Of a stretch of 64,000 nucleotides of DNA, positions 5,217 to 54,102 are shown piece after piece; positions within the stretch are counted from its first letter, which is position 1; the number at the start of each line of letters is the position of its first letter. The stretch lies in contig CAVVXN010000005.1 of NCBI GenBank assembly GCA_963752285.1, forward strand, positions 32,001 through 96,000, given 5' to 3'. The notes beneath the pieces are model-generated. The model did no database searches. It was not told the origin of the DNA and worked only from the letters and a program-made list of their open reading frames with translations. The position numbers were made by a program, and so were the translations under genes. The DNA is from an uncultured Planctomycetota bacterium. Lineage in GTDB: Bacteria; Planctomycetota; PLA2; JAEUHO01.

Positions 5217-5219
5217 CGC

Positions 5220-13064: not shown

Positions 13065-13109
13065 GGATTCACTCCGCGGGGCCGAGGCCGGTGCTCGGCG
13101 CGTTGCCGT

Positions 13110-13143
13110 GGCCGATGAACTGGTGACGGGGCCGCGTCGAGAC
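13110..13143 (-). promoter_or_regulatory. Bipartite motif GTCTCGACGCGG-N9-CAGTTCATCGGCC, candidate promoter/operator
   Basis: Second copy of the motif, about 45 nt upstream of ATG 13064. Confidence 0.55.
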
Positions 13144-13261
13144 GTCCGATCCCCGAGACGGCGCGCGCTCGGGGGCGACGGTGGGCTCCGAGGCCGGGGG
13201 CGCCCCGCCGGATGCGAGACCGAGGGGCACCGCGTCACCCGCGATCCGCTATCCTGGCCGG

Positions 13262-13894
13262 ATGACCTCGCCGGCGCCGGACCCCGAGGCTGCTCTCCTC
13301 GCCGCCGCGGAGGATCGCGGCGAGGCCCTCGGACGGCTGCTCGAACGCCACCGCCGCCGGTTGCTCAAGATGATCCACCTGCGGATGGACCCGCGCCTCC
13401 AGGCGCGGGTCGGTGCGTCCGACGTGCTCCAGGACGCCTTCTTCGACGCCGGGCGACGCGTCGGGGCGTACCTCGCGGACCCGCGGATGCCCTTCTTCCT
13501 GTGGCTGCGCTTCCTGACCGCGCAGTCGTTGGCCGCGCGTCATCGCGAGCACCTCGGCGCCCGCAGGCGGGACGTGCGCCGCCAGGTGGACGGGGGACGC
13601 CCCGACGCCTCCGGCCCGGCCGTCGTGGACCTCCTGGTCGCGAACGGCACGACACCGACGGAGGGCGTGGCGCGAGAGGAGACCCGGGTTCGGGTGCTCG
13701 CGGCCCTGGAGCGACTCGGCGAGACGGACCGGGAGATCCTCGTGCTCCGCCACTTCGAGGAGCTCGGGAACGAGGAGGCCGCCTTCGAGCTGGGCATCGA
13801 GCCGCCCGCGGCGAGCAAACGCTACGTCCGCGCGTTGCGTCGCCTGAGGGAGGCCCTGTGCGCCGAGGGCCTGGGCGAGGCCGGACTCGCATGA
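13262..13894 (+). CDS. ECF sigma-70 factor, planctomycete kinase-associated type
   Basis: LRMDPRLQARVGASDVLQ region 2; DREILVLRHFEELGNEEAA...SKRYVRAL region 4; ATGA overlap with kinase. Confidence 0.92.
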   Translation: MTSPAPDPEAALLAAAEDRGEALGRLLERHRRRLLKMIHLRMDPRLQARVGASDVLQDAFFDAGRRVGAYLADPRMPFFLWLRFLTAQSLAARHREHLGARRRDVRRQVDGGRPDASGPAVVDLLVANGTTPTEGVAREETRVRVLAALERLGETDREILVLRHFEELGNEEAAFELGIEPPAASKRYVRALRRLREALCAEGLGEAGLA

Positions 13895-16800
13895 ACGCCG
13901 ACGCCTCCGAGGAGCTCGACCGCCTCGCACAGGAGTTCGTCGCGCGACACCGCGAGGGCGACCGACCCTCGGTCTTTGATTTCGCGGCGCGTCACCCCGA
14001 GCGCGCCGCGGACATCCGCGAGCTCTTCCCCGTGCTTCTCCGGATGGAGACGCTCCGGAGCGACGTGGTCGGCCAGCCGTCCGGGACGCGCCTCGGCGAC
14101 TACGTTCTCCTTCGCGAGATCGGCCGAGGTGGGATGGGCGTCGTCTACGAGGCGGTGCAGACCACCCTCCACCGGCGCGTGGCGCTCAAGGTGTTGCCGC
14201 ACGGCGCCACGTTCGACCCGCGCACCTCGGAGCGATTCCGCGCCGAGGCGCGTGCCGCGGGCAGGCTGCACCACGCCAACGTCGTGCCGGTCATCGAGTA
14301 CGGCGAGGAGGACGGCGTCCACTACTACGCGATGCAGTACGTCGAGGGCCGTGGGCTCGATGCCGTGCTCGCGAGCCTGCGGCGGCGCCTTGCGTGCGAG
14401 GGCGACGCGGGGGGCGGCGACCCCCTCGCCGACGCGCTCGCCGATCGTCTGCTCCAGGGGGCCTGCGCGGGGGGCGGCGCCGCGGCAGGGCGGTCTCGGT
14501 CGTCGGGCGCGGGTCGCGGGGTCCGCCCGCGCCGGCCCGGGCGGCGCTACCACGACGCCGTCGTGCGCCTGCTTCTCCAGGCCACGGAAGGGGTCGCGGC
14601 CGCGCACGCGCAAGGCGTGCTGCACCGGGACATCAAGCCGTCGAACCTGATCCTCGATGCGGACGGGAAGCTCTGGGTCGCCGACTTCGGGCTCTGCAAG
14701 GAAGCCGACGGGCGAGAGGACACGCTGCCCGGCGCCGTCGCGGGAACCCTGCGCTACCTCCCCCCGGAGCGTCTGCGTGGTGCGTCGGACGTTCGGGGCG
14801 ACCTCTACGGTCTCGGGATCACGCTCTACGAGATGCTGACACTCGCTCCCGCGTACGCCTCGGAGGATCGCGTGGCGCTCCTGGCCGACATCGCCAGGGC
14901 GCCGCCACGCCGTCCCCGCGCGCTCGATCCGAGAATCCCCGTGGACCTCGAGGCCGTCGTGCGGAAGGCCACGGCGCACGACCCGGGACAGAGGTACGTG
15001 ACGGTCGAGGGCCTCGCGGCGGACCTCGGCGCGTACCTGGAGGGGCGGGCGATCACCGCGCGCGCACCGAGGGCCACGTACCTGCTTCGCGCCTGGGTTC
15101 GACGGCACCGGGCCCTCACGGCGACCGTGCTGCTGGCCGTGGCGGCGCTGGGCACGGGCGCGGCCTTCTACGTGAGGAACCTCGCGCAGGAGCAGGTGGA
15201 GGCGAGGTTCCAGCAGTACGTGGCGAGCATCGCGGCGGCGGAGGGAGCGCTGCGGCTCCAGGACCCCGATACCGCGCGACGCCTCCTCGACGACGCGCCG
15301 CCGGAGCTTCGCAACTGGGAGTGGCAACACCTCGAGAGCCGGCTCGACCGGAGCCTTTGGACGATCGACCTCGGCGGCGCAGAACCCCACGGCGTGGCGT
15401 ACGACCCCGACGGTTCCAAGTTCGCAATCGGCGCCGACGACTGGACCTCCGTGTGCGACGACACGTCCGGCCGGGAGGTCGCGCGGCTCGACCACGAGGG
15501 GAGCGTCACGGGCGTCGCGTGGAGTCCGCGGGGCGACCGCATCGCCGTGGGCACCTGGGAAGGACTGGAGATCTGGAGCTGGCCCGATCCGCACCGGCTC
15601 CACCGCCTGGCCGGAGCGGGTCAGGTGGCGGACCTGTCCTTCAGCCTCGACGGTCGGCGCGTGGCGACGGGTGGCGACGAGGGGCGGTTGCGGGTGTGGG
15701 ACGTGGAGAGCGGCCGCCTCGAGGCGGACCTCGGCGTGCACGCGTGGATCCACGCGCTCGACTTCCGATCCGGGGACGACCGCGTCGCCGTGGGAGGCGG
15801 TGACGGCATCGCCTCCGTCTGGGACGTGGCGACCGGCGCGTGCCTCTGGTCCCGGCGGGCGAGCGACGTCGGGCTCCACGGGATCACGTTCGTCGGTCGG
15901 GATCGCGTGGCCACGCCCTCCGAGGCGCACCACGTGTGCCTGTGGTCCGCGGCCTCGGGCGATCTGCTTCGGATCGTGACGCGGCTGCGCCAGGTGGGGG
16001 CCGCCCAGGTGCGCGCCACGACGGACGGGACGCTGCTCGCGGTCGGCTCCGGGCAGGGACTGGAGATCTGGGACGCGCGCGACTGGACCTGCCGTGCCAC
16101 CTGGCCGGGCCGGTACGCGGTGCTCGACGTCGCGTTCCATCCCTCGCACACGTGCGTCGTGACCGCCTCCATGGGCGCGGTCAAGGCGTGGGCGGCCGAG
16201 CGCGACCCCGACGTGCTGCGGGGCCACATGGACGACGTGACCAGCGTCGCCTACGCGCCGGACGGCGCCTGGTTCGTCTCCGCCGGCGTCGGCGGGGTCG
16301 TCCGGAGGTGGGACGCGAACACCGGCGAGCAGGCCCGTGCGTGGATCGGGCACCGCTGGTCCGTGACCGCGCTCGCCGTCTCGCCCGACGCCCGCCTCGT
16401 CGCCGCCGGCGACGCGACGGGAGAGGTGCTGCTCTGGGACGTGGAGCGCGACGAGGTCGCGTTGCGGATCGACGCGCACGAAGGCGCCCCCGTGCACGAC
16501 CTCGCATTCCGCCACGACGGCACCCGACTCGCCACGGCCGGCGCGGACGGCCGGCTCGCCGTGTGGGACGTCGCGACCGGCAAGCCGCTCGCGACCGTTC
16601 GGGCGACCGACGGGAGCCTGGGCTGCGTCGAGGTGACGCCCGACGACCGGTACGTCCTGACCGGCGACGCGTCCGGCGCGGTCCGGGTGTGGGACGCCGC
16701 GACCTTGGCGCCGGTCCGGGACCTCTCGCCCCACGGCGACCTCGTGACCGGTATCGACTGTTGCGCGACCCGGGGTCTCGTCGCGACCGTGTCGCAGGAC

Positions 16801-17736
16801 GACACGCTCCGACTCTGGAACCTCGACGACGGGAGCCTTCGGCGCGTCACGCCGCTGCCGTCACCCCTCGACGTCGCCTTCAGCCCCGACGGGAGCCGCC
16901 TGGCCGCGGGCTGCATGGACGGGACCGTCCGCCTCTTCGACACGGCGAGCGGCCGGCTGGTCGCGACCCTCCAGCACGTGGACTGGGTCTACGCCGTAGC
17001 GTGGAGCCCGGACGGCGAACGGCTGCTGTCGGCGAGCAGCGCCGCCGAGGTCCGCGTCTGGGGCACGCGACCGCTCGGTGTGCGCCGTCCCCGCGAGGCC
17101 GACCCTTCGCGCCGACGCCGCGCCGTGGCCCTCGTCGCCGCGCTGGCGGAGGCGGACCCCGATCCCGACGTCCTCGTGCGTCGGGTTCGCACCCGGACGG
17201 ACCTCGGTCCGGACCTTCGCGAAGCCGCGCTGCGCGAGGCGTATCGTCTTCTCGGGAGCGAGGAGGGGCTGATCGCGCGGCTCTGGCGGGCTGCGACGTC
17301 GCGCGACGCGGACCCGCTCCGGCTTCGCATCGCACGGGGGCTGGCGGCGGACATGACCCGCGCGGCGGGCCACCGGAACCGGCCCGACACGCGCCGGAAC
17401 ACCCTCTGGGCGGCGCTGACCTTCCGTAGCGGCGACTACGACCTCGCGCTCGAGCGCCTCCGGACCTCGATGATGCTGAACGAGGACCGGTTCCCCGAGC
17501 TCTTCGCCGTGGACCTCGCGCTCCTCGCGCTGAGCCACGCGGCGCTGGGCCACGACCGCGACGGGAAGGAGGCGCTCGCACGTCTCGAGGCGCACCTGGA
17601 CGACCATCCGAAGGCACGGACCCCGCGGGTCGAGGCGTTCCTCGCCGAGGCGCGGGAGGCCGTGAGGAAGGCCACGACCTCCCCGGCGGGGGCGTCCGGC
17701 CGCGAGACGGCGGGCGCCGCGACCGGAGGCGGCTGA
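13891..17736 (+). CDS. Ser/Thr protein kinase with TM helix and WD40 repeats
   Basis: GRGGMG, VALK, HRDIKPSN, ADFG; TM segment ALTATVLLAVAALGTGAAFYV; many GH...WD repeats; TPR-like tail. Confidence 0.93.
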   Translation: MNADASEELDRLAQEFVARHREGDRPSVFDFAARHPERAADIRELFPVLLRMETLRSDVVGQPSGTRLGDYVLLREIGRGGMGVVYEAVQTTLHRRVALKVLPHGATFDPRTSERFRAEARAAGRLHHANVVPVIEYGEEDGVHYYAMQYVEGRGLDAVLASLRRRLACEGDAGGGDPLADALADRLLQGACAGGGAAAGRSRSSGAGRGVRPRRPGRRYHDAVVRLLLQATEGVAAAHAQGVLHRDIKPSNLILDADGKLWVADFGLCKEADGREDTLPGAVAGTLRYLPPERLRGASDVRGDLYGLGITLYEMLTLAPAYASEDRVALLADIARAPPRRPRALDPRIPVDLEAVVRKATAHDPGQRYVTVEGLAADLGAYLEGRAITARAPRATYLLRAWVRRHRALTATVLLAVAALGTGAAFYVRNLAQEQVEARFQQYVASIAAAEGALRLQDPDTARRLLDDAPPELRNWEWQHLESRLDRSLWTIDLGGAEPHGVAYDPDGSKFAIGADDWTSVCDDTSGREVARLDHEGSVTGVAWSPRGDRIAVGTWEGLEIWSWPDPHRLHRLAGAGQVADLSFSLDGRRVATGGDEGRLRVWDVESGRLEADLGVHAWIHALDFRSGDDRVAVGGGDGIASVWDVATGACLWSRRASDVGLHGITFVGRDRVATPSEAHHVCLWSAASGDLLRIVTRLRQVGAAQVRATTDGTLLAVGSGQGLEIWDARDWTCRATWPGRYAVLDVAFHPSHTCVVTASMGAVKAWAAERDPDVLRGHMDDVTSVAYAPDGAWFVSAGVGGVVRRWDANTGEQARAWIGHRWSVTALAVSPDARLVAAGDATGEVLLWDVERDEVALRIDAHEGAPVHDLAFRHDGTRLATAGADGRLAVWDVATGKPLATVRATDGSLGCVEVTPDDRYVLTGDASGAVRVWDAATLAPVRDLSPHGDLVTGIDCCATRGLVATVSQDDTLRLWNLDDGSLRRVTPLPSPLDVAFSPDGSRLAAGCMDGTVRLFDTASGRLVATLQHVDWVYAVAWSPDGERLLSASSAAEVRVWGTRPLGVRRPREADPSRRRRAVALVAALAEADPDPDVLVRRVRTRTDLGPDLREAALREAYRLLGSEEGLIARLWRAATSRDADPLRLRIARGLAADMTRAAGHRNRPDTRRNTLWAALTFRSGDYDLALERLRTSMMLNEDRFPELFAVDLALLALSHAALGHDRDGKEALARLEAHLDDHPKARTPRVEAFLAEAREAVRKATTSPAGASGRETAGAATGGG

Positions 17737-30640: not shown

Positions 30641-31219
30641 ATGAGGTACCGACGGGCCGTTCTGTGCGTGACCGGGCTCGTCCTCGCCCTGGCCGGCCCC
30701 GGTGTGACGGCGGAGCCGGGGGGCCAGGGGCCGGACCTTCGGCGGGTGACGCTCGACGACCTGATCGACGCCGCGAAGCGGGTCCGGCCGGACATCCAGA
30801 TGAAGGTCACCTGGTGCGGGCCCCAGACGAAGAGCGTCCCGACGATCGTGCTCGGGACGCTGGGCCACCGCCTGAACGCCGACAAGTACGTCCCGCTCCG
30901 ACGGGAAGGCTGGAGCTACGCCAACGACGATCCCCCGTCGATCCGCTACTACCAGCTCACGCCCGACGAGTGGACGCGGGCGCTCACGGCGATGAAGGCG
31001 GCCGGCTGGGCGGGGAAGGTGAACCCCTCGGAGCCCGAGTTCGAGCGACGCATCCACGTCGTCCTGGTCAGCACGGGCTGGCAGGACCGGAGCTACGACT
31101 GGGCCGAGCTCTTCCTCGACGCCGACACGCCCTCCCTCCGCGCGCTCTTCCTCGGCGCGCTCGCGGAGCACGACCCCGCCGGCCTGCTCGTCGAGAATCG
31201 TCTCTTCCGCGGCTCCTGA
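30641..31219 (+). CDS. Secreted hypothetical protein
   Basis: GGAGGAG SD; signal peptide MRYRRAVLCVTGLVLALAG. Confidence 0.75.
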   Translation: MRYRRAVLCVTGLVLALAGPGVTAEPGGQGPDLRRVTLDDLIDAAKRVRPDIQMKVTWCGPQTKSVPTIVLGTLGHRLNADKYVPLRREGWSYANDDPPSIRYYQLTPDEWTRALTAMKAAGWAGKVNPSEPEFERRIHVVLVSTGWQDRSYDWAELFLDADTPSLRALFLGALAEHDPAGLLVENRLFRGS

Positions 31220-31495
31220 CGAACGCCGGGGCCGTACCGGCAACGGGACCGTGGCCCTCGCGTCGCGCATTCGGAATGCGAGGAGCCGTCCTCACAGGCG
31301 ATCGCGTCGCGCATCGCCACGCGGATGCTCCCGCTCTCGACGCGGTCGTGCCCGCGGAGGCCGCGGCCGGCGCGCGCGCGCGAGGGGGCTCCACGTGCGT
31401 CCGAGGATCGGCGCCCGGGACCTGCCGGGCCGGAGGGTCCGGTCCGCGGATCGGTGGGGCCCACCGGTCGGGCCTCGCGGGCTCATCGCCCGGGC

Positions 31496-33151
31496 TCATC
31501 GCCCGGGGTCGGCGCCCACCAGCTCGACCTCCACCCCGGCGGGCGCCGCGTGTGCGAGGGCGTCCACGACCCAAGCGAGCCGTGCACGCGTGGGGGGATC
31601 GGGGGGGGCGAATCGCAGCGTGGCGCACGGTCGTCCCTGGTGGCGCGTGAGCACGCGGGGCCGCAGGGACAGGCGTGCGCTCGCGACCTCGCCGAGCGGG
31701 ACGCTCCGCCCGTCGCGGACCCCGACCGGGAGCGAGGTCCGCTCCAACGGGCTCCGAGCGCCCTGTCCGTACCGGACACGGACCCGACGCGCGCGGCCGT
31801 CCACACGACACGTCGCAAGGAGCACGAGCCCGTCCCCCGCGGCCTCGAGGAGGCGGCGGACGTCCCGTTCCTCGAGCCCCAGGGCACGAAGTCGATCCGC
31901 GTCGAACCGCCACGACGGGCTCGGCGCCACGTCGAGTCCCGCGCGCGTAAACCGCGCCGTGGGGACCGCTTCGCGAACCTGCGCCTCGGCGCGCGCCATC
32001 TGCGCCTCGAGCACGGAGCGGTCGTCGCCGGTGAACCGGATCGCGGGCGCGGTCCGGAGGTCGTCGGCCGCGGACACGGCCGCGGACGGCACGGCGGCCG
32101 TCATCGCACGGACGAGATCCCCCGTCGCCGTGGGGTCCGCGGGCCCAAGGAGCACGCGGGCGAAGGTGCCGGCCAGGGGCTCCTCGTCCTTCCCGTCCTC
32201 GACGATCACGATCGGCTGCGCGCGGTCCGAAGCCGTCTCCGCGACGGCGCGCCGTGCCGCCTCCAGGGCTCGTTCCTTCGACGTGCCGGCAGGGAACGCG
32301 AGGCGGACCTCGTCCCACCGGTCGAGTAGCGCGAGGTCCACACCCGGCACCGGGGACGACCTCCGGAACGCGTCGAGCGCGCGGGCGACGCCCACCCGCG
32401 CGACGCGGACGGCCTCCGACACGTGCACCGCGAACAGCACCGCGGGGCCGTTCGCGAGGCGGACCCAGCCGTCGTCGGTCGCGAGCGCTGTCCGGACCTC
32501 CGCGACGTCTCGCACGCGCACGTCGGGCGCCACGACGACGTCGCCGAGGGCCTCCGGCGACGCGAGCGGCTCCGTGGGGCCGGTCGGGACCAAGGAGAGC
32601 GCGTCGAGGACGCGCGCCCACGCGAGACCGCGCGCCGCGAGCCGCTCCGGCGAGACCACCACCTCGACCTCCGGCGTCGGGGCGCCGATCGGATCGACGC
32701 GTCGGACGCCGGCAACGCGCGCGAGCGCCTCGCCGACCGCCTCGGTCGGCGCGACGAGGTCGGCAATCGTCCCGTCGCGCCGGAGGACGACGTAGAGCGT
32801 CGCGGTCGGCCCCGCGTCGAGGAAGACCTCGACCTGGACGTTCGGGGGCAGGGCCGCGGCCGCCACCCGGTCGCGCACGGCGGCGAGGAGATCGGACGGG
32901 CTCGCGGGGAAGGAGAGACGGAGGAACGCCGCGCCGTCGCGCGTGACGTCGTCGAGCGAGGCGAGCCCCGGGAGGTCCTTCAGCGCGGACTCGAGGGGGA
33001 GCACGCCCTGCATCTCGAGCGCCTCCGCCGTCGCCCCGGGCGCGCGGAGGCGGAGGACCACGCTCTCGGCCGCCGGTCCCGCTCGCGCCCGGCCGGCGGC
33101 GAGCGCGACGCCGAGGAGACTCGTTCCGAGGAGCAAGGCCTTCCGCCGCAT
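31496..33151 (-). CDS. AcrB/RND-like protein consisting only of the periplasmic porter and docking domains
   Basis: Signal peptide; PGATAEALE..VLPLESAL..LPGL, VAGVRRV...PERLAARGL, VRVRDVAEV, PAGTS, GDDRSVL, DGRSVPLGEVA, TRHQGRP; no TM helices. Confidence 0.75.
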   Translation of the reverse strand: MRRKALLLGTSLLGVALAAGRARAGPAAESVVLRLRAPGATAEALEMQGVLPLESALKDLPGLASLDDVTRDGAAFLRLSFPASPSDLLAAVRDRVAAAALPPNVQVEVFLDAGPTATLYVVLRRDGTIADLVAPTEAVGEALARVAGVRRVDPIGAPTPEVEVVVSPERLAARGLAWARVLDALSLVPTGPTEPLASPEALGDVVVAPDVRVRDVAEVRTALATDDGWVRLANGPAVLFAVHVSEAVRVARVGVARALDAFRRSSPVPGVDLALLDRWDEVRLAFPAGTSKERALEAARRAVAETASDRAQPIVIVEDGKDEEPLAGTFARVLLGPADPTATGDLVRAMTAAVPSAAVSAADDLRTAPAIRFTGDDRSVLEAQMARAEAQVREAVPTARFTRAGLDVAPSPSWRFDADRLRALGLEERDVRRLLEAAGDGLVLLATCRVDGRARRVRVRYGQGARSPLERTSLPVGVRDGRSVPLGEVASARLSLRPRVLTRHQGRPCATLRFAPPDPPTRARLAWVVDALAHAAPAGVEVELVGADPGR

Positions 33152-33203
33152 CTCGCGGATGCTACGGTCGCCCGCCGGGGCGACCCCGGGGTACGCTCTT
33201 CGC

Positions 33204-34061
33204 ATGAAGCCCGGCGGCCTCGTCGTGCCGATCCTCCTCGCGGCGACCCTCGCCTTCGCCGTGCCCGAGGGCTGGCACACTTCGAGAAAGGACGGCCTCG
33301 CGGCCGCCACCACCAGCGGGAAGCCGCTCTTCCTCGTGACGCTCTGGCCCCCGAACGTGTGAGGGTCCTGCGACGCCTGGCGGAGCCGGGTGGAGACGGA
33401 CGAAGGGGTGGGGAAGGCCCTCTCGCGGTTCGAGTGCGTGGAGGAGGTCTACGACGGGCTTGGAGGGAACGTGATCGCCTGGACGAAGGCGCACGGAGGC
33501 ACGAGCGACGATCCCTCGGCGCAGGTCTTCGTGCTGGGCCGGGACGGCGCCTTCGTCGCGCGGGCGTCCGACGCGACCGCGCACGACCCGAAGGCCCTCG
33601 CGACCTGGCTCGGCGAGCAGTCGAAGGCGTACGAGCGGGCCCATCCGAAGACCGCGCTCCCCCTCGTTCGCGCCGAGGTCGCGATCGAGGGCCAGGGCGA
33701 GGACGAGAAGGCGGTGTGCGCGGCCCTCGACGACGCGAAGCGGCGGGGCGCGCCGGCCCTCCTCTACTTCGGGCGCGACGCGGCGCCCGCGGGCGACAGG
33801 AAGCTCGGGAAGGAGGTCGAGGCGTCGCAGAAGCTCGAGCGGGGCGCGCTCGACGCGAAGTCGGCGGCCCAGGCCGCGAAGGGCTGGGTGCTCCTGCGCT
33901 TCGACCTCGCGGACCCGACGCACGCGCGGCTCGCGAAGTCGTTCGGGGTCGGGGCGGCGCCGGACGTGGTGCTGGTGGTGCCGGGCGGGGACGCGCCGAT
34001 CGACCTCGGCGTCCCGAGCGCGGCGACGCTGTGCTACCGGTTGAAGAAGCACGCGCCCTGA
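33204..34061 (+). CDS. Candidate selenoprotein: exported tandem thioredoxin-fold protein with UxxC (U53-G-S-C56)
   Basis: ORFs 32943..33362 and 33390..34061 share a frame, separated only by TGA 33360-33362: ...W-x4-DGLAAATTSGKPLFLVTLWPPNV-U-GSC-DAW...; hairpin follows. Confidence 0.85.
33365..33401 (+). promoter_or_regulatory. Bacterial SECIS-like stem-loop
   Basis: Lower stem GTCC/GGAC; upper stem CGCCTGGC(33374-33381)/GCCGGGTG(33385-33392); apical loop GGA 19 nt after TGA. Confidence 0.7.
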
Positions 34062-34192
34062 ACGGCGCGGCGTCGGCCGAGACGGTCGGGCGTGCTCGGC
34101 TCCGGCGGGACCGCACGGCCGCCGGATCCCGGATTCGGGACGTCCCCTCGTGGCGTGGGAGAACAAAGCCCCGGACAGGAGACCCCGTCCCC

Positions 34193-34681
34193 ATGCACGA
34201 GCACGAGCCGCTCCCGGACTCCGTACGCGAGACCATCGACCTCTGGGTCTCGGACTTCGCCGAGCGTCCGGCCGCGGTGGAGCCCCTCGCGCGCGTGGGG
34301 ACGCACGGGCTCGAGGTCCTGGCCAGCTTCCTCGGGGCCGCGTGCCACGGCGGCGTGGAGCCGCCCGACATCGAGGGGGGAGAGGTCGCCCACGCGCTCC
34401 TCGACCACGTCGCGACCCTGGCGCTGCCGCCCGCGTCGCGCGACGCGGTGCCCGATCTCGTCGCGGCCTTCCTCGCCGACCTGGAGGAGGTCGGCCGGCT
34501 CTCGGGCGGGCGCGCGCTCGCGGCCCAGGTGCGCGCGACGGCGCCGGCCTACCGCGAACGTGCGTCCGGGCGTACCCACGTCGAGAAGCGGGTCGCGCCC
34601 AAGGTCGGCCGGAACGACCCCTGTCCCTGCGGGTCCGGGAAGAAGTACAAGCGCTGCTGCATGAACGCGCTGGACCGCTGA
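34193..34681 (+). CDS. SEC-C motif (Zn-binding) domain protein
   Basis: C-terminal KVGRNDPCPCGSGKKYKRCC; AGGAG SD. Confidence 0.88.
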   Translation: MHEHEPLPDSVRETIDLWVSDFAERPAAVEPLARVGTHGLEVLASFLGAACHGGVEPPDIEGGEVAHALLDHVATLALPPASRDAVPDLVAAFLADLEEVGRLSGGRALAAQVRATAPAYRERASGRTHVEKRVAPKVGRNDPCPCGSGKKYKRCCMNALDR

Positions 34682-34709
34682 GCCGTTCGGCTCGCACGGG
34701 GAGGGCCCC

Positions 34710-35258
34710 ATCTCCGCACCCGACGCATCCTCCGCGCGAGCGGCCGCCATCCGGGGCTACGTCTCGACGACCCTCGCGCTCCTCGGAGACGAGGATGCCG
34801 TCGAGGTCCTCGCGCGGACCCCCGTCCGCGTCGCCGCGCTGGTCGCGGACACGGAGCGCGCCGTCCTCGACCAGCCGGAGGCGCCGGGCAGGTGGTCGGT
34901 ACGCGAGGTCGTCGCGCACCTGGCGGACGTCGAGATCGCGTGGGCCTGGCGGCTCCGGCGCGTGCTGGCCGAGGACCGGCCGGCGCTGTCGGGCTTCGAC
35001 CAGGACCTCTGGTCCGCGCGCTTCCGCTACGCCGAAGCGCCGCTGGAGCCGAGCGTCCGGCTGCTCGTCACGCTCCGAGAGTCGAACGTCGCCTTGCTCC
35101 GGGATCTCCGGCCCGGCGACCTCGAACGGGTGGGCGTGCACGAGGAGCGCGGCCCCGAGAGCCTCGTGCGGATGATCGGCCTCTACGCGGGGCACGACCT
35201 CGTCCACCTGCGCCAGATCGACCGCATCCTGGCCGCCGCGGCGACCGGGAGCGCGTGA
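34710..35258 (+). CDS. DinB family protein; no canonical start (candidate ATC 34710)
   Basis: PGRWSVREVVAHLADVE, FDQDLW, AGHDLVHLRQI; the first motif lies upstream of the first GTG (34962). Confidence 0.8.
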   Translation: MSAPDASSARAAAIRGYVSTTLALLGDEDAVEVLARTPVRVAALVADTERAVLDQPEAPGRWSVREVVAHLADVEIAWAWRLRRVLAEDRPALSGFDQDLWSARFRYAEAPLEPSVRLLVTLRESNVALLRDLRPGDLERVGVHEERGPESLVRMIGLYAGHDLVHLRQIDRILAAAATGSA

Positions 35259-35430
35259 GCGAGGCGAGGCGCGCGCTTCGCTCCGGCTCGTCGCGTCCGC
35301 GGACCCGAGGAGCTCTTGCACCGAGGTCCGGGCGCGCGACGGCGGGTCTGCCGCGACGCCCAGCACGCGTCTCGTCGGGTGGCGCGGCCCCGGGTTGCGC
35401 GCCGGCGGGCCCCCGCGGACACTCGGTCGC

Positions 35431-37770
35431 GTGACCGCATCGACCGTCTCCGTCGGGGCGTGGCGGGTGGGGGTGGCCCTCGCGCTGGCCGTCCTCGTCT
35501 CGGCGTCCGCCGCCGGGGACGACGCGCCGCGCCGCGCCGCGGGCTGGCGCCTTCCCGACGCCTCGCCCGACGCGATCCTCTTCTGGGCGGGCTCCGCAGC
35601 GCGGAAGATCCGACCCGACGAGGAGGTGCCCGAAGCGCGGTCCGAGGCCATGACGGTTCGGGCCGCGCGAAACGAGGTGGACGCCGTAGAGCTCGTGGTG
35701 CGGCCGGCGCGGGCGATCGACGGGTTCGTCGTGCGGGTGTCGGAGCTCGCACCGCCGACGGGGTCGCGCGCTTCTCCCGCACCCACCGTGGAGGTGCTCC
35801 GGGTCGCGACCGTGATCGTGACCACGCCGACCGACGAGAGCGCGTCGCCGGGCCCGTGGCCCGACCCGCTCCTCCCGATCGAGGGAGCGCTCTCGCTCCC
35901 GGCGGGCGGGAACCAGGCGTTCTGGCTGCGGGTGCACGTCCCGAAGTACGCGGCGGCCGGCACGTGGAGGGGCACGGTCGATCTCACGGCCCCGGGACTC
36001 GCGGCGCGCGTGCCCCTCCTCGTCACCGTCTACGACTTCACGCTGCCCGACCGTACGACGCTCCGCACGGCCTTCGGGTTCTCGGCCGGGGAGGTGATCC
36101 GGTACCACCGGCTGCGGACCCCCGAGGACCGGCGGCGCGTGGTGGACCTCTATCTCGACGACCTCGCGGCGCACCATCTCTCCCCGTACGACCCAGCTCC
36201 CCTCGACCCGATCCGCGTGACGTGGCCGAGCGTTTCCCCGCCGCGCTCCCCGTACGCCGACTGGACGAACGCGCGCATCGTCGGGAACGAGGTGCACACG
36301 GGGCATGGCGCCCTCCTCCTGTACGACGACCGTCCCGACGAGAACATGTCGGTCGGCTACGCGCCGCTCGTCACGATCCCGCCGGGCGGGTTTTACGTTT
36401 CCTTCTGGTACCGGACGGCCGTTCCGGGCGCGCGCTTCCTGCTCGCGATGGAGCACTTCGACGAGGCGAAGCGGTGGCTCTCGGGGCGGAACCTCGACAC
36501 CCTCGTCGAGGGCGACGGGACCTGGCAGCACTTCGAGGCCCGTGTCATCGAGTTCCCTCCGGGTGCGCGCTTCGTCCGCTTCCGCGCGTACGCGGCCCCG
36601 TGGACCGAGAAGGGGGAGGGCATCGGCCTCGTGTGGCTGGACGACGTGTCCGTCGAGGACCCCGACACCGGCGCCTCGCTCGTCCCGGGAGGCGACTTCG
36701 AGCCCGTCCGTCGGACGGAGACCGTCCTGCCGCCCGACCAGCTCGTGCCGCACTTCGACTTCGAAGCGTGGGACCGCGCGATGATGCGCGCCTTCCAGGC
36801 GCGCCACGTGAGCTCGTTTCGGGTGGACGTTCCCGGGCTCGGAAGCGGGACGTTCTTCGGCGCCCAGGCGCCCGGCCTGCTCGGGTTCGGTGAGGACACG
36901 CCCGAGTACCCTCTCCTCTTCGACGCGTACGTGAAGGGGGTCGAGGCCCACCTGCGCGAGAAAGGGTGGCTCGACGACGCCTATGTCTACTGGTTCGACG
37001 AGCCGGACCCTGCCCAGTACGAGCACGTGCGCAAGGGCTTCCTCAGGCTCCGGGGCGCGGCGCCGGGCCTTGCCGGCATGCTGACCGAGCAGGTCGAGGA
37101 CGCCCTCGTCGGCGGCCCGTCGATCTGGTGCTGCCTCACGCCGCGCTTCGACGCGACACGGGTCGCCGAACGCCAGCGGGCCGGCGAGCACGCCTGGTGG
37201 TACGTCTGCACGGCGCCCAAGGCCCCGTACGCGGGTCTGTTCCTCGACCACGCGGCGCCCGAGATGCGGGTCCTGCTCTGGCAGACGTGGAAGCGCCAGG
37301 TCGAGGGCCTCCTCGTCTGGCAAACGGACTACTGGACCAGCCCGACCGCGTACCCGGATCCCGGCGCGCCGCAGGACCCCTACGCGGACCCGATGAGCTG
37401 GACGACCGGCTACGGCGTGCCCGTGGGCACGCGACACCCGTGGGGGAACGGCGACGGCCGGTTCCTCTACCCGGCGCCCGGCGCGCGGCCCGACGCCTCC
37501 CAGCCGCCCGTGCTCGCCGGCCCCGTGGACTCGATCCGGATCGAGCAGCTCCGCGACGGCATCGAGGACTACGAGTACCTCGCCCTGCTCCGCCGGCGCC
37601 TCGCGGCGCGCGGCGCGTCGCTCTCCCCCGAAGACCGGGCGCGGTACGAGGCGCTCCTCGAGGTCCCGGCGTCGATCACCGAGTCGCTCACGCGCTTCAC
37701 GGACGACGGCGAGCCGATCGAACGCCGCCGCGACGAGATCGCGCGGGCCATCGAGGCCCTCTCCGACTGA
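35431..37770 (+). CDS. DUF4091/GH123-like glycoside hydrolase with inserted CBM-like domain
   Basis: Signal peptide; AARNE, YWFDEP, WWYVC, GNGDGRFLYP, SIRIEQLRDGIEDYEYL. Confidence 0.85.
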   Translation: MTASTVSVGAWRVGVALALAVLVSASAAGDDAPRRAAGWRLPDASPDAILFWAGSAARKIRPDEEVPEARSEAMTVRAARNEVDAVELVVRPARAIDGFVVRVSELAPPTGSRASPAPTVEVLRVATVIVTTPTDESASPGPWPDPLLPIEGALSLPAGGNQAFWLRVHVPKYAAAGTWRGTVDLTAPGLAARVPLLVTVYDFTLPDRTTLRTAFGFSAGEVIRYHRLRTPEDRRRVVDLYLDDLAAHHLSPYDPAPLDPIRVTWPSVSPPRSPYADWTNARIVGNEVHTGHGALLLYDDRPDENMSVGYAPLVTIPPGGFYVSFWYRTAVPGARFLLAMEHFDEAKRWLSGRNLDTLVEGDGTWQHFEARVIEFPPGARFVRFRAYAAPWTEKGEGIGLVWLDDVSVEDPDTGASLVPGGDFEPVRRTETVLPPDQLVPHFDFEAWDRAMMRAFQARHVSSFRVDVPGLGSGTFFGAQAPGLLGFGEDTPEYPLLFDAYVKGVEAHLREKGWLDDAYVYWFDEPDPAQYEHVRKGFLRLRGAAPGLAGMLTEQVEDALVGGPSIWCCLTPRFDATRVAERQRAGEHAWWYVCTAPKAPYAGLFLDHAAPEMRVLLWQTWKRQVEGLLVWQTDYWTSPTAYPDPGAPQDPYADPMSWTTGYGVPVGTRHPWGNGDGRFLYPAPGARPDASQPPVLAGPVDSIRIEQLRDGIEDYEYLALLRRRLAARGASLSPEDRARYEALLEVPASITESLTRFTDDGEPIERRRDEIARAIEALSD

Positions 37771-40674: not shown

Positions 40675-43600
40675 ATGGGCACCGAAGTCTCTCGCCCGAT
40701 GCCGCCGCCCGAGCCCCGTCCCGGGGACGACGGTTCGGGGGGGGACGCACCGTGGCCCCGCCCGGACGACCGGGTGGGGGGCTACCGCGTCCTTCGGTCC
40801 GTCGGCCAGGGCGGGATGGGACGCGTGTTCCTCGCGGAGCGCGACGGGCGTCGCGTCGCGCTGAAGGTCATGCGGATCGGCCTGGCGTCGGAGACCACGA
40901 CGCGCCGTAGGTTCGAGCGCGAGGCGCGCCTCGGGCTCGCCGTGCGCCACGAGTACGTCGTCTCCGCGTACGACGCGGGTACCCTCGACCGCGAGGGCGA
41001 GACGTACGGCTATCTCGCGATGGAGTACGTCGAGGGCCAGACGCTCCGCGCGCTCGCCGTCGAGCTGTCGCGTGTGCCGGAGGAGCTCTGCCGTCACGTG
41101 GGCCGCGCCATCGCGAGCGGGCTCGCCGCGATCCACGCGGCCGGCGCGGTGCACCGAGACCTCAAGCCGAGCAACGTGATCATCACGCCCGAGCAGATCG
41201 TGAAGATCATGGACCTCGGCGTCGCCCACGTGGTGGACGACGCCTCCCGGCTCTCGCGCACGGGGGAGTTCCTGGGGTCCGTCCTCTACGCCGCGCCCGA
41301 GCAGTTCGGCTCGGAGCCCGTGGTGGACGCGCGTACGGACCTGTATGCGCTCGGTCTCGTCCTCTACGAGCTCCGGACCGGTCACAACCCGTTCGAGCAC
41401 CCCGAGCTCGTGGGCGTCGTGCGAAACGTGCTGGAGCTCGCCCCGCCCCGACTGGGCGATCTCGAGCCCCAGACCTCACCGTTCCTCGAGGAGGTCGTGC
41501 ATACCCTCCTCGAGAAGGAGCCCGGGCGGCGCTTCGCGAGCGCACGCGCCCTCCTCCAGGTCCTGGAGGAAGGCGAGGACTCCGACTGGTGGCGCCGGCG
41601 CGAGCACGAGAGGAGGGTCCGGGGCACGCGACCGCTCCGACGTCTCGCGCGCCGCGCCGAGGTAACGCTCTGCGGCCGGGAGGAGGAGCTCGGGGCGCTC
41701 GTCGCGGCGTTCGAGCGGGCGCGGTCGGGCGAGGGCCAGGTGGTCGTCGTGGAGGGCGAGGCCGGCATCGGCAAGAGCCGCCTCGTGGACGAGCTGGTGG
41801 CGCGGCTCGCGGAGCGCGGCGCGTCGGTGCAGTTCCTCCTCGGCGCGCACCCGCCCGGAGGCGCGCCCGCGCGGACGGACGCCTTCCTCGCGCTCGTCCG
41901 CGACCACATCGGTACGGAGGGCGTGGAGGAGGCGATCGCTCCCTCGCTTCGCGAGACGCCCTATCTCGTCCCCGGCTTCGCCGCGCTGCTGCGGGGCGAG
42001 ATGGCGCCGCCCGGCGCCGTGACCCTCGGGGAGGAGGCGCGGCAGACCGCGTTGGCCGCCGTCCTCTCGGGCCTGGCCGCGGAACGGCCGACGATCGTGG
42101 CCGTCGAGGACCTCCAGCTCGCCAGCGCGGAGGAGCGACGCACCTTCCTCGCGGTCGCGGGCGCCGTCCGGGGCCACCGTCTGCTCCTCGTCGGCACGAC
42201 GCGCCCCGGGCTTCCGGCGACCTGGCATGCGGCGCTGGAGGGCGCGGTCGAGACCACGAGGATCCGCCTCGCCCGACTCGGCGCGAAGGACCTCGCGCGC
42301 CTCCTGGAGGACGGCGTCGGGTCGCGGGTGGCCGCCGAGCTCGGCTGGAAGATCGCGCAGAAGTCCGACGGCAACCCCTATTTCGCGCTGGAGATCCTGA
42401 AGAGCCTCAAGGACGCCAACCGGATCCTGCAGGGCGCCGACGGCGCGTGGCGGATCACGGGGACCCTCCGGGACGTCGAGATCCCGTCGTCGGTCGTGGA
42501 CCTGGTCGCGGCGCGGCTCGACGCCCTCGACGACGACGAGCGCGAAATCCTGGAGGTCGCCGCCTGCTGCGGGCACGAGTTCGACGCCGCGCTCGTCGCG
42601 ACGGCTCTGGGGCGCGAGCGGATCCCCCTGCTCCGCGCGCTGGGTCGCATCGAGCGGGGACCCGGGCTCGTGCGCTCGACGGGAGCGCGGTTCCGCTTCG
42701 ACCATCACCAGGTGCAGGAGACGCTCTACGCCCGTCTCTCGCCGCCCCTGCGCTCGGAGTACCACGTGCTCCTCGCCAAGGCGATCGAAGCGTCGTCTTC
42801 TCCGGCCGACGAGGACCCGCGCCGCGCCGTCGAGCTCTGCCACCACTTCCTCCACGGCGGCCGGCACGCCGACGCCTCCCCGTACCTGGCGCCCGCGCTC
42901 GCCTGGCTCTACCAGACCGCGCAGTACGAGGCCGTCGTGGACCTCGCCGAGCGCGCGCTCGCCGGACCCGCGGAACGCCGCCGGCGCCTCGAGATCCTCC
43001 TCTCCCTGGGCTCCGCGCTCCAGCCGCTCGGCCGGTGGGCGCGGTGGGAGGAGATCCTCGCCGAGATGGTCCGTCTCGCCGACGAGGAGGGCGACCTCGC
43101 GCTCCGCGCACAGAGTCGTTCGGCGCTCGGCTGGTTCTACTGCGAGGTGGGACGTCACGGGGAGGGCCAGGCGGCGTTCGAGGAGCAGCTCCAGCTGGCG
43201 ATTCGACTCGGCGACCGGGCCCTCGAGGCCGTCGCGCTCGGGAACGCCCGCGGCTACGGCATCGACACCGGCCACTTCGAGGAGGCCAAGGACGCGTACC
43301 TCCGCCAGGTCGCGATCGCACGGGAGATCGGGAACCGGAAGATCGAGCAGCAGGGGCTCGGCAACCTCGGGCTCTCGCTCGAGTACCTCGGGCGCTGGGC
43401 GGGGGCGCTCGACGCGTTCCGCGGCTCGCTGGCGCTCTCCGAGGTGAGCGGCGACCGCGTGAACTCCGGTCTGTGCCACGTCGCGCTCGGGCGGATGCTG
43501 CCCCTGCTCGGCGAGCCGGAGCGCGGGCACGCGCACCTCGAGGTCGCGCTCTCGACGTTTCGTGCGCTCGGGCCGCGGCGCGCCGAGACCTACGCGCTCC

Positions 43601-44115
43601 ACCGCCTGGGCATCGTGGCGGAGCAGGCAGGCGACCTCGCGCGCGCCGAGGCGTTGTACGAAGCGGGCCTCTCCATGCGCCGCGAGCTCGGGTACCGCGG
43701 CGGCGTCGCGCGAAGCCTTCGCACGCTCGGCGCGCTCCAGGTGGCTCGCGGGCGCACGGAGGAGGGAGCCGCGCGGCTCGAGGAGGCGGAGGCCGTCGCG
43801 CGGGCCGTGGAGGACCACGGCGACTGGGTCCTCGCCGCCGCGTACCTCGCCCTGCTCGGGCGGCGGGACGCTTCGGCCGCCGAGTCCCTCTTCGCCGAGC
43901 TCGAACCGCGACTCCGTGCGGCGGACCGCCTGGAGGCCCTCTACGTGCTCTGGCGGACGACGGGCGGGGACGGGCACCTCGCGGCCGCGCGGCGTCTCCT
44001 CGACGACCTGGTCCTCTACGCGCCGCCGGACCACCGGAAGGGAATGGTCGAGCGCGTGCCGCTCCACCGCGCGGTTCGCGAGGGGAGGGGCAGGGGACCG
44101 GTCCCCACCCCTTGA
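40675..44115 (+). CDS. Ser/Thr protein kinase with AAA ATPase and TPR domains (paralog of 5613..9281)
   Basis: GQGGMG, VALK, HRDLKPSN, MDLG, APE; GEAGIGKS, VEDLQ, GNPYF; TPRs. Confidence 0.92.
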   Translation: MGTEVSRPMPPPEPRPGDDGSGGDAPWPRPDDRVGGYRVLRSVGQGGMGRVFLAERDGRRVALKVMRIGLASETTTRRRFEREARLGLAVRHEYVVSAYDAGTLDREGETYGYLAMEYVEGQTLRALAVELSRVPEELCRHVGRAIASGLAAIHAAGAVHRDLKPSNVIITPEQIVKIMDLGVAHVVDDASRLSRTGEFLGSVLYAAPEQFGSEPVVDARTDLYALGLVLYELRTGHNPFEHPELVGVVRNVLELAPPRLGDLEPQTSPFLEEVVHTLLEKEPGRRFASARALLQVLEEGEDSDWWRRREHERRVRGTRPLRRLARRAEVTLCGREEELGALVAAFERARSGEGQVVVVEGEAGIGKSRLVDELVARLAERGASVQFLLGAHPPGGAPARTDAFLALVRDHIGTEGVEEAIAPSLRETPYLVPGFAALLRGEMAPPGAVTLGEEARQTALAAVLSGLAAERPTIVAVEDLQLASAEERRTFLAVAGAVRGHRLLLVGTTRPGLPATWHAALEGAVETTRIRLARLGAKDLARLLEDGVGSRVAAELGWKIAQKSDGNPYFALEILKSLKDANRILQGADGAWRITGTLRDVEIPSSVVDLVAARLDALDDDEREILEVAACCGHEFDAALVATALGRERIPLLRALGRIERGPGLVRSTGARFRFDHHQVQETLYARLSPPLRSEYHVLLAKAIEASSSPADEDPRRAVELCHHFLHGGRHADASPYLAPALAWLYQTAQYEAVVDLAERALAGPAERRRRLEILLSLGSALQPLGRWARWEEILAEMVRLADEEGDLALRAQSRSALGWFYCEVGRHGEGQAAFEEQLQLAIRLGDRALEAVALGNARGYGIDTGHFEEAKDAYLRQVAIAREIGNRKIEQQGLGNLGLSLEYLGRWAGALDAFRGSLALSEVSGDRVNSGLCHVALGRMLPLLGEPERGHAHLEVALSTFRALGPRRAETYALHRLGIVAEQAGDLARAEALYEAGLSMRRELGYRGGVARSLRTLGALQVARGRTEEGAARLEEAEAVARAVEDHGDWVLAAAYLALLGRRDASAAESLFAELEPRLRAADRLEALYVLWRTTGGDGHLAAARRLLDDLVLYAPPDHRKGMVERVPLHRAVREGRGRGPVPTP

Positions 44116-45100: not shown

Positions 45101-45568
45101 ATGACGAAGGGCAGGTTCGACGCGGCGGCCCTCGCCCCGGGCGCGTTCCACGCCATGCTGGGGCTCGAGAGGTACCTCGCCGGGTGCGGCCTCGAAGCGA
45201 AGCTGCTGCACCTCGTGAAGCTCCGGGCGTCGCAGGTCAACGGCTGCGCGTACTGCATCGACATGCACTGGAAGGACGCCCGAGCGCTCGGCGAGACGGA
45301 GCAGCGTCTGTACGGGCTCGACGCCTGGCGGGAGGCGCCCTACTACACGGACCGCGAGCGCGCCGCGCTCGCGTGGACGGAGGCCGTGACCCTCGTTCAC
45401 GTCGGTCAGGTTCCGGACGAGGTCTACGACGCGGTGCGCGCGCACCTGAGCGAGCAGGAGGTCGCCGACCTCACCGTCGCGGCCGCGACGATCAACGCCT
45501 GGAACCGCATCGCGATCGCGAGTCGCGCTCCGGCGGGCTCGTACCGGCCGTCCCACGCGCGGGTCTGA
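45101..45568 (+). CDS. Carboxymuconolactone decarboxylase/AhpD family protein
   Basis: LVKLRASQVNGCAYCIDMH, ERAALAWTEAVT, INAWNRI. Confidence 0.93.
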   Translation: MTKGRFDAAALAPGAFHAMLGLERYLAGCGLEAKLLHLVKLRASQVNGCAYCIDMHWKDARALGETEQRLYGLDAWREAPYYTDRERAALAWTEAVTLVHVGQVPDEVYDAVRAHLSEQEVADLTVAAATINAWNRIAIASRAPAGSYRPSHARV

Positions 45569-53106: not shown

Positions 53107-54096
53107 TTGACCGACGTACGCGCCCTCGGGCCCGAGATCGAGAAGGACAGCGCCTTCCTCCGGGACGTGATCCGGGAGGTCGAACGCGTGATCGTCGGTC
53201 AGAAGGCCCTGATCCGGAGCCTCTTGATCGGGCTCCTGGCCGACGGCCACGTCCTGCTGGAGGGTCTGCCCGGCCTCGCGAAGTCGCTCGCCGCGCAGTC
53301 GGTGGCGAACGCGCTCGGCGGCACGTACCGGCGCATCCAGTTCACGCCGGACCTCCTTCCGTCCGACCTCCTCGGAACGCAGGTCTACAACCCGCGGACG
53401 AGTGAGTGGTCGATTCGCGAGGGTCCGATCTTCGCGAACTTCGTGCTCGCCGACGAGATCAACCGCGCGCCGGCCAAGGTGCAGTCGGCGCTCATGGAGT
53501 CGATGCAGGAACGTCAGGTGACCCTCGCGGGCGAGACCCGTGCGTTGCCCCGGCCGTTCCTCGTGCTCGCCACGCAGAACCCCGTGGAGCTCGAGGGCAC
53601 GTACCCGCTGCCGGAGGCGCAGATCGACCGGTTCATGCTGAAGGTGGTCGTCGATTACCCGACCCAGGAGGAGGAGCCCGAGATCATCCTCCGGATGGTC
53701 GGCACCGGGGCGCAACCGACCGCCCGGCAGGTCGCCACGCCGGAGCACGTGCTCGCCGCCCGGGCGCGGCTCGACGAGGTGTACGTGGACGAGAAGCTCC
53801 TCCGGTACGTCGTAGACCTCGTCTTCGCGACACGGCGCCCCCGTGAGGCCGGCCTCGCGAGCCTCCAGCCGCTGATCCTCTACGGCGCCTCGCCCCGCGC
53901 GTCGATCGCGCTCGTGAGGGCGGGCCGCGCGCGCGCGTTCCTCGAGGGCCGGGGGTACGTGACGCCGCACGACGTGAAGGCGGTGGCCCTCGAGGTGCTC
54001 CGGCACCGGGTGATCACCACGTACGAGGCGGAGGCCGAGGGGATCGGCTCGGAAAGCGTGATCCAGACGGTGCTGGACGCCGTGAAGGTCCCGTGA
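53107..54096 (+). CDS. moxR: MoxR family AAA+ ATPase
   Basis: HVLLEGLPGLAKS, RIQFTPDLLPSD, DEINRAPAKVQSAL, ATQNP, YPLPEAQIDRF, GASPR. Confidence 0.95.
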   Translation: MTDVRALGPEIEKDSAFLRDVIREVERVIVGQKALIRSLLIGLLADGHVLLEGLPGLAKSLAAQSVANALGGTYRRIQFTPDLLPSDLLGTQVYNPRTSEWSIREGPIFANFVLADEINRAPAKVQSALMESMQERQVTLAGETRALPRPFLVLATQNPVELEGTYPLPEAQIDRFMLKVVVDYPTQEEEPEIILRMVGTGAQPTARQVATPEHVLAARARLDEVYVDEKLLRYVVDLVFATRRPREAGLASLQPLILYGASPRASIALVRAGRARAFLEGRGYVTPHDVKAVALEVLRHRVITTYEAEAEGIGSESVIQTVLDAVKVP

Positions 54097-54102
54097 GCCC
54101 GC

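Follow-up and report, generated by a model that had tools for sequence, protein, structure and literature searches.

A 64,000-nucleotide stretch of DNA from an uncultured Planctomycetota bacterium (contig CAVVXN010000005.1; the whole stretch is called the window below) carries a plus-strand reading frame that raises a simple question: is the TGA at 33360-33362, the sole stop codon inside that frame, the end of a gene, or is it a selenocysteine (Sec) codon in the middle of one? From ATG 33204 to a terminal TGA at 34059-34061 there is a single frame of 285 codons, counting the one candidate Sec codon. On translation, 52 residues precede the internal TGA and 232 follow it, and the codons GGG TCC TGC directly 3' of it give the motif U-G-S-C at codons 53-56, exactly as a first-pass annotation made from the letters alone had described. 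It is highly probable that 33204-34061 is one selenoprotein gene, split in two by annotation software at its Sec codon, and, as part of the same reading, that its product is an exported two-domain thioredoxin-fold oxidoreductase with Sec as the active-site nucleophile. The evidence consists of one frame, a UGA conserved at the attacking position of the redox motif, cysteine (Cys) at that position in relatives, and two thioredoxin folds.

Open frames are cheap in the window because its G+C content is so high (74%, and 71-77% throughout): 32 open reading frames (ORFs) of at least 40 amino acids (aa) overlap the 5.5 kb from 31000 to 36500, so that long open frames are common there by composition. 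What sets the 33204 frame apart is its codon-position pattern. Over the whole frame, G+C at the first, second and third codon positions (GC1, GC2 and GC3) is 0.73/0.52/0.965, and in 150-nt windows on either side of the TGA GC3 stays at 0.90-1.0 and GC2 at about 0.5, as in one continuous frame; upstream of 33204, the codon-position G+C fits a gene on the opposite strand. The gene caller chose an alternative start, ATG 33159, but the alignment of homologues favours ATG 33204. At the protein level, the Pfam domain Thioredoxin_7 (PF13899) matches residues 24-83, across the TGA (E value 5.3e-6; 26.9 bits, with a gathering cutoff of 27), and neither the half before the TGA nor the half after it matches this domain alone at E <=0.1. 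Two minus-strand ORFs, 32980-34371 (463 aa) and 33162-36026 (954 aa), also cover the locus. As genes both were rejected, their codon-position G+C being unlike that of coding DNA; they are artefacts of 75% G+C.

Homologous loci were sought by a scan of species-representative genomes with the read-through protein (tblastn), which yielded seven (L001-L007), with matches from about residue 22 onward. All seven are titled as Planctomycetota metagenome-assembled genomes (MAGs), and their proteins are 43-50% identical to the window protein. On translation, 7/7 loci proved to have their in-frame TGA at precisely the codon aligned with that of the window, always as U-x-x-C: U-G-P-C and U-T-P-C twice each, and U-S-P-C, U-A-S-C and U-N-P-C once each. 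Their terminal stops are TAG in four and TGA in three. At every locus, an ATG stands 50-60 codons upstream of the TGA, with a basic residue and then a hydrophobic stretch after it. In the full-length protein alignment of the window gene and the loci (A3), G23, W24, S38, G39, T46, W48, U53, C56, W59, R60, D103, P104 and S105 are invariant; since invariant columns lie upstream of the TGA, the part before it is under protein-level selection.

The same picture emerged from protein databases, where the family is stored largely in halves. The read-through protein had 17 relatives of 41-96% identity in a word-indexed search. Of these, 16 are 199-251 aa long and start downstream of the TGA position; P0012, at 263 aa, spans the full length, with C-N-S-C at the Sec site. 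Comparison of the A3 profile with 1.84 billion cluster representatives gave 215 matches at E <=0.001, of which 150 were listed and classed by profile coordinates. Among these 150 matches listed, 30 are ORFs of 45-90 aa that stop at profile position 51-52, the residue before the Sec site. All 30 stop after a '...VT-x-W-x-x-x-x' segment, they show the same basic-then-hydrophobic start, and one is the window's own ORF from 33159. In a further 37 of the 150, the match starts at profile positions 63-71 and within the first 8 residues of the ORF; these ORFs begin 7-23 codons past the Sec site, where an ATG or GTG first occurs past the TGA. The first-pass annotation had anticipated that pipelines would split the gene into two ORFs, and these 30 N-terminal and 37 C-terminal half-ORFs are what such splitting produces.

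Relatives that cross the site carry Cys there. Thirteen of the 150 matches listed are strong, single-stretch, full-length relatives (E <=1.7e-47) with C-x-x-C at the site; another 25 of the 38 rows automatically classed as full-length were weak generic short thioredoxins, matched in several stretches, and were not counted as Cys forms. When the 16 site-covering relatives were aligned to the window protein, 15 of them showed Cys in the place of Sec and one (P0071) showed Ser, with C56 invariant in this alignment. The expectation that homologues should have Cys or a conserved TGA at position 53 was therefore borne out by 7/7 loci and 15/16 relatives, and the reading as a selenoprotein gains support from the TGA of the loci, the Cys of the full-length homologues and the conservation on both sides. 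With the Cys form P0019 as query, another word-indexed search added further Cys forms as well as truncated forms of 216-222 aa with 62-64% identity to P0019. The named database entries of the relatives all read 'hypothetical protein'; Cys forms carry a precomputed PF13899 label, and some PF13098 beside PF13899. For P0019, the Atlas result held only clusters automatically named 'thioredoxin-like domain-containing protein', commonest in Planctomycetota.

A quick tree was built with IQ-TREE from the 225 columns kept after the site. Its 64 rows comprise eight TGA forms verified in DNA, 35 truncated ORFs presumed to be TGA forms, and 21 Cys forms, and leave out P0002, P0008, P0017, shorter fragments and weak matches. 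Sec-type and Cys-type rows are interspersed on it. The tree needs 12 Sec/Cys state changes, at least 8 of them forced by branches with Shimodaira-Hasegawa-like approximate likelihood ratio (SH-aLRT) support of at least 95, and these counts are to be read with the caveat that fragment labels may be partly wrong: P0175, for one, differs little from the Cys form P0171, and its truncation may reflect no more than the end of a contig. A tree of the 29 verified rows alone still needs 5 state changes, to which no direction is assigned.

An AlphaFold2 model built on A3 (mean predicted local distance difference test score, pLDDT, 87.6; predicted template modelling score, pTM, 0.67; pLDDT <50 for residues 1-21) contains two beta-alpha-beta thioredoxin topologies. 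In domain 1 (about residues 24-146), strand 42-47 precedes U53, which starts helix 54-63, and a D103-P104-S105 loop lies before strand 107-111. As modelled, this is the classical active-site geometry of the thioredoxin fold, with Sec at the canonical CxxC position and a proline that is probably in the cis state. Domain 2 (about 159-282) repeats the thioredoxin strand-helix order with R-D-A-A-P-A-G-D in the place of CxxC, and Thioredoxin_7 matches it weakly (E 0.17). Within the family, PF13899 is matched by 9/9 members at E <=0.01, at best 9.3e-10. A side observation concerns C171 (33714-33716), where helix 173-180 of domain 2 begins: it is present in the window gene and 6/7 loci, that is 7/8 TGA forms, and also in many Cys forms, though some lack it.

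Structural comparison with Foldseek pointed in the same direction. Against the PDB, the top match was an oxidoreductase fragment of QSOX1 (Trx1-Trx2; E 5.2e-8), followed by human protein disulfide isomerase (PDI) and ERp57. These two-domain matches extend over about 250-290 columns (256-286 for the QSOX1, PDI and ERp57 chains) at E 5e-8 to 1e-5, with a global template modelling (TM) score of only 0.24-0.32; the mutual orientation of the domains therefore differs or is not fixed. The best single-domain match, to domain 1, is the gamma domain of DsbD (1vrs_E: target-normalised TM 0.68, root-mean-square deviation (rmsd) 2.5, 114 columns, 22% identity), with 2fwg (TM 0.66) and 1uc7_A (TM 0.64) next, so that the three range over rmsd 2.5-3.2 and 21-22% identity. 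By sequence profile, the sole solved structure found was 3fk8_A, a 133-aa 'Disulphide isomerase' (E 0.0011). Model and Foldseek together support the earlier proposal of a tandem thioredoxin fold whose second domain lacks CxxC.

In bacteria, Sec is inserted when SelB, carrying Sec-tRNA(Sec), recognises a hairpin just 3' of the UGA. The first-pass annotation had proposed such a hairpin, and RNAfold returned it in every detail: an upper stem of 8 bp (33374-33381/33385-33392) with the loop GGA (33382-33384), 19 nt between TGA and loop, above a lower stem of GUCC (33365-33368) and GGAC (33398-33401). The 66 nt from the TGA have a minimum free energy (MFE) of -31.1 kcal/mol (z = -2.0), and 7/200 shuffles fold as well. 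A 7-8-bp stem starting 11 nt past the TGA is found in five loci (the window, L001, L005, L006 and L007), where the 5' arm includes the codon of the invariant Trp59 and the loop begins in the codon of Arg60. L003 has a 6-bp stem with its register shifted by one and different codons; at L004 the filter described below picks a 5-bp stem with the loop GUG further downstream, a shifted stem like that of L003 being seen by eye alone; and the 5-bp hairpin of L002 is a different one, with GGU as its loop and located about 8 nt further on.

To place these structures against a background, we used a filter that asks for a perfect stem of at least 5 bp and a loop of 3-7 nt with G in its first two bases, the loop lying 16-37 nt past the codon; the distance and G limits are reportedly those of bSECISearch. 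All 8/8 sites pass it. A stability of <=-7.5 kcal/mol is reached by 6/8 sites, compared with 13.3% of 2113 other in-frame positions in the same genes, and <=-10 kcal/mol by 5/8 sites, compared with 7.4% of the other positions. The hairpin is real, and it is suggestive of, and compatible with, a SECIS (selenocysteine insertion sequence), with moderate statistical support.

Several results weigh against the reading as a selenoprotein gene. On the side of the RNA, the binomial p of about 1e-4 for the 6/8 sites overstates the case, the eight sequences being related. Pairing in a fixed register holds in 76.8% of cells, compared with 75.9% in shuffles, with no significant covariation; RNAalifold, run on 96 nt around the TGA in the eight sequences, did not recover the hairpin and returned another helix of 5 pairs (covariation term 0.17). 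By 45-nt MFE, 4/8 sites are among the top 6% of positions in their own genes, and the remaining four are average. No Rfam family matches at the gathering threshold in the whole window or at E <=10 in 33300-33480, apart from a single snoRNA-type match in the latter interval (E 0.15), dismissed as chance and irrelevant. The hairpin arms are moreover the codons of a conserved D-x-W-R-x-x-V peptide that is present in the Cys forms too, and because the arms encode a peptide kept in those forms, RNA and protein constraint are inseparable here. On the side of the genomes, ARAGORN found no tRNA in the window and Pfam no SelA, SelB or SelD domain among 42 of its ORFs; in the flanks of the seven loci (up to 10 kb), there was no selA, selB or selD among 64 ORFs (NCBIfam) and no tRNA-Sec (ARAGORN). 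No neighbour in the window recurs beside the seven homologues, the gene itself alone being common to all eight. Finally, which way catalysis runs, how the protein is exported and what donates the electrons are all points that we infer.

Some of these points are tempered by what is known of such elements and genomes. SECIS-like structures become commoner with rising G+C and some bacterial SECIS elements fit no model, according to PMC12013277. The absence of Sec genes says little, because the window and the flanks are small samples of multi-megabase genomes; PMC4807772 reports full Sec-insertion gene sets in several Planctomycetes. A 90-nt tRNA with anticodon tga, 2-3 kb downstream of the gene in two loci (L003:4843-4932 and L006:13898-13987), was considered as a tRNA-Sec and set aside as an ordinary serine tRNA.

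The comparative hallmarks of a selenoprotein, namely a conserved UGA, a Sec/Cys pair, and conservation together with coding signal on both sides of the UGA, are all present at this locus. Of the other explanations, the one that survives best is read-through of the UGA outside a Sec system, by a near-cognate Trp or Cys tRNA or a suppressor tRNA, which would give W/C-x-x-C at low efficiency. It can appeal to the unverified Sec machinery of the carrier genomes and to the fact that Cys is functional at the site in relatives, but we hold it to be improbable. A UGA conserved at the attacking position of a CxxC motif, combined with Cys homologues, is the signature that defines selenoproteins in the relevant parts of PMC12013277 and PMC1088965. 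A hairpin also lies at the expected place, Sec and Cys rows are interspersed on the tree as Sec/Cys exchange predicts, and a general suppressor would come at a high cost, most genes in the window being terminated by TGA.

Less probable still, to the point of being very unlikely, is a true stop, which would make the locus a pseudogene or a pair of genes for an exported peptide of 52-67 aa and a protein of 223 aa. Gene callers do annotate two ORFs throughout public data, GTG 33390 could start the second, and no Sec machinery was found in the window or the locus flanks. A nonsense mutation, however, would not persist at a single codon across 8/8 loci that are 43-50% identical and conserved, as protein, on either side of it. 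The TGA lies within one thioredoxin fold and one Pfam match, the Cys forms are continuous proteins, and translation of the 3' ORFs is predicted to begin within helix 54-63 or immediately after it.

A genome-wide reassignment of TGA, of the code 4 or code 25 type, has nothing in its favour except that the frame is open under such a code. There are 45 composition-based gene calls in the window, one running off the end and one corresponding to the 5' half of the selenoprotein gene; because 38 of the other 43 end in TGA (4 in TAG and 1 in TAA), reassignment is refuted and its probability negligible, and the other three same-frame TGA junctions are ordinary gene ends as well. The same-frame ORF junctions at 19285, 45568, 48824 and 54096 had been considered as further selenoproteins and were rejected as ordinary gene ends, with non-coding-looking text after the TGA junctions. 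At one of them lies an AhpD-like carboxymuconolactone decarboxylase (CMD) gene (45101-45568, plus strand). CMD-like proteins figure among the listed selenoprotein families, with CxxU (PMC13188914 Table 1), but in this copy no TGA interrupts the frame, and the one at 45566-45568 appears to be the normal stop.

A sequencing or assembly error at 33360-33362 can be dismissed just as firmly, for although the L001 rpoD frame is disrupted near 16250-16282 and errors thus occur in such data, the same TGA stands in 8 independent assemblies and is implied in 29 more N-terminal ORFs, representatives of 50%-identity clusters, among the 150 matches listed. The rpoD homologue in question (L001:16240-16285) is in two pieces, with two adjacent in-frame stops, and reads through in another frame, which suggests a small assembly indel; it was because such contigs carry errors that the TGA was judged on eight independent assemblies.

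The features of the selenoprotein gene as we read it are collected in Table 1.

Table 1. Features of the probable selenoprotein gene, in window positions.
Feature	Position	Strand	Basis
Whole probable selenoprotein gene	33204..34061	+	Frame; GC3 0.965; homologues align over residues 13-285
Signal-peptide-like N-terminus, residues 1-19 (K2, hydrophobic core, A-F-A)	33204..33260	+	Sequence; cleavage site putative
Domain 1, residues 24-146: probable catalytic Thioredoxin_7-type domain with DsbD-gamma-like fold	33273..33641	+	PF13899; model; Foldseek
In-frame TGA, very probably read as Sec (U53)	33360..33362	+	TGA in 7/7 loci; Cys in full-length homologues
Redox motif U-G-S-C, codons 53-56	33360..33371	+	N-terminus of helix 54-63 after strand 42-47 (model)
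SECIS-like hairpin	33365..33401	+	RNAfold; comparable hairpins at other loci
Pro104 in D-P-S loop before strand 107-111	33513..33515	+	Invariant column; putative cis-proline match
Domain 2, residues 159-282: predicted thioredoxin fold without CxxC, probably redox-inactive in the b-type manner	33678..34049	+	Model; Foldseek
5' small ORF of gene callers, 67 aa (= P0099)	33159..33362	+	Gene call; profile match
3' ORF of gene callers, GTG start, 223 aa (P0002 is 96% identical)	33390..34061	+	ORF list; relatives

The gene is flanked by a 551-aa ORF on the minus strand (31499-33152), divergent and with no Pfam match, and by genes for a SEC-C-motif protein (34193-34681), a DinB_2 protein (34665-35258) and a GH123-like protein. 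A further gene, seen in one of the eight loci about 1 kb downstream of the selenoprotein gene, encodes a VKOR-family protein (L002:11779-12846, minus strand): NF011480 matches the N-terminal 133 residues of its 356-aa ORF (E 1.3e-15). Since disulfide formation is driven by VKOR proteins, a functional link is conceivable. Elsewhere in the window, a MoxR-DUF58-VWA cluster (53107-56968, plus strand) consists of tightly packed or overlapping genes for a MoxR-type AAA ATPase (53107-54096), a DUF58/VWA protein (54103-55032), an unmatched ORF (55029-55964) and a VWA protein (55961-56968). Two large plus-strand proteins, encoded at 5217-9281 and 40675-44115, both combine a Ser/Thr kinase with AAA_16 and TPR domains, and a very long open frame at 12187-17736 (plus strand) has a kinase domain and many WD40 repeats.

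We compared the family with those already described. A 2026 review lists 119 prokaryotic selenoprotein families and subfamilies (PMC13188914 Table 1), and that table holds no Thioredoxin_7 family with UxxC and no family with two thioredoxin folds. Nor does such a family appear in the portions covered of PMC9312934, PMC1088965, PMC1794560, PMC12013277 and PMC13326102. Full-text literature yielded no paper describing it, with the BSepDB tables, supplements and a groundwater-MAG study lying outside the comparison. For the nine members, no NCBIfam model covers the family. The first-pass suggestion of a possibly undescribed family thus holds as far as NCBIfam and Table 1 of PMC13188914 go, and is not thereby proven.

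The nearest listed selenoprotein family is Trx7/PDZ (NF041199), which likewise has an N-terminal Thioredoxin_7-type domain with Sec in a CxxC-type motif. It is the sole NCBIfam model touched by the window protein (12.5 bits, where the cutoff is 300, over positions 2-58 of the 390 in the profile), and 8/9 family members match it weakly (best E 0.0016). NF041199, however, is CxxU (PMC13188914 Table 1) and carries a PDZ domain, whereas the family described here is UxxC, has no PDZ match and has a second thioredoxin fold. Sec in the first position of UxxC makes the protein one of a kind with the PF13098 thiol:disulfide interchange family and with the Trx, DsbA-like, DsbG-like, SaoT and HUIPC-motif families; several UxxC thioredoxin-fold selenoproteins of PMC13188914 Table 1 are exported. 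PF13098 (Thioredoxin_2) itself does not match the window protein at E <=1 and matches 1/9 members (E 0.0038); a distant, clan-level relation remains, given the PF13098 labels of Cys forms. The other thioredoxin-like selenoprotein models, NF041057, NF040730, NF047660 and NF045500 among them, match none of the nine members at E <=0.1, single weak matches to the TsoB and VPGUxxT type 2 models being the exceptions. The UGSC family (NF041046) was also considered and rejected, with no match in the window protein at E <=1 or in the nine members at E <=0.1. Because that model is unmatched and the middle residues of the motif vary (SP, GP, TP, AS, NP), the likeness of U-G-S-C to the family's name is a coincidence.

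Outside selenoproteins, the gamma domain of DsbD is a periplasmic, Cys-based thiol-disulfide exchange domain. DsbD has a membrane-embedded central domain between its alpha and gamma domains, whereas the window protein has no membrane or alpha domain and matches gamma alone: it is predicted to be a free exported protein with an extra thioredoxin fold and Sec in place of Cys. The DsbD model NF001419 is weakly matched by 2/9 members. QSOX1 (Trx1-Trx2) and the a-b pairs of PDI, ERp57 and ERp72 have, as here, a catalytic thioredoxin domain followed by a second thioredoxin fold; these proteins are eukaryotic, Cys-based and 8-17% identical, and the demonstrated likeness is one of architecture. In 3fk8_A, a C-x-x-C aligns on the Sec site (profile positions 16-131), the similarity being very weak and the protein single-domain and Cys-based.

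A mechanism can be proposed on this basis. SelB with Sec-tRNA(Sec) would bind the hairpin that starts 11 nt after the UGA, so that Sec is inserted in place of termination. The signal peptide would direct the protein through the general secretion route across the inner membrane, with about 19 residues removed; a periplasmic location is suggested by the signal-peptide-like N-terminus. Outside the cytoplasm, the selenolate of U53 would attack substrate disulfides (or sulfenic acids) and C56 would resolve the intermediate, the enzyme acting as a reductase or isomerase. Domain 2 may be a non-catalytic substrate-binding module, like those in the a-b domain pairs of protein disulfide isomerases, and a membrane electron donor of the DsbD type could recycle the enzyme. 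The assignment as a reductase or isomerase in particular, drawn from fold and motif, is tentative. Between U and C, the thioredoxin-like G-P occurs in two of the 8 TGA forms, and in four more the residue preceding Cys is Pro. Such motifs lean towards reduction or isomerisation, but the dipeptide varies and an oxidase is also possible.

The recoding mechanism and the chemistry are canonical: this is a further thioredoxin-fold UxxC selenoprotein, which extends a known theme. The family is apparently unlisted and found mainly in Planctomycetota. On balance we slightly favour the view that the gene is the founding member of an unlisted family of exported two-domain selenoproteins, so far seen in Planctomycetota MAGs, in which most members are Sec forms mis-annotated as two hypothetical ORFs, Sec and Cys have been swapped at least 5 times, and a bacterial counterpart of the PDI a-b module may bring selenium chemistry to the planctomycete periplasm. 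Its annotation is systematically wrong, with dozens of representatives of 50%-identity clusters stored as a 'hypothetical protein' of about 55 aa and another of about 225 aa. If confirmed, it would add one family to the roughly 119 compiled in 2026 (PMC13188914) and would mean that Planctomycetota widely export a selenoenzyme, and its many close Sec/Cys pairs would offer a natural system for asking how selenium benefits an extracytoplasmic thiol-disulfide oxidoreductase.

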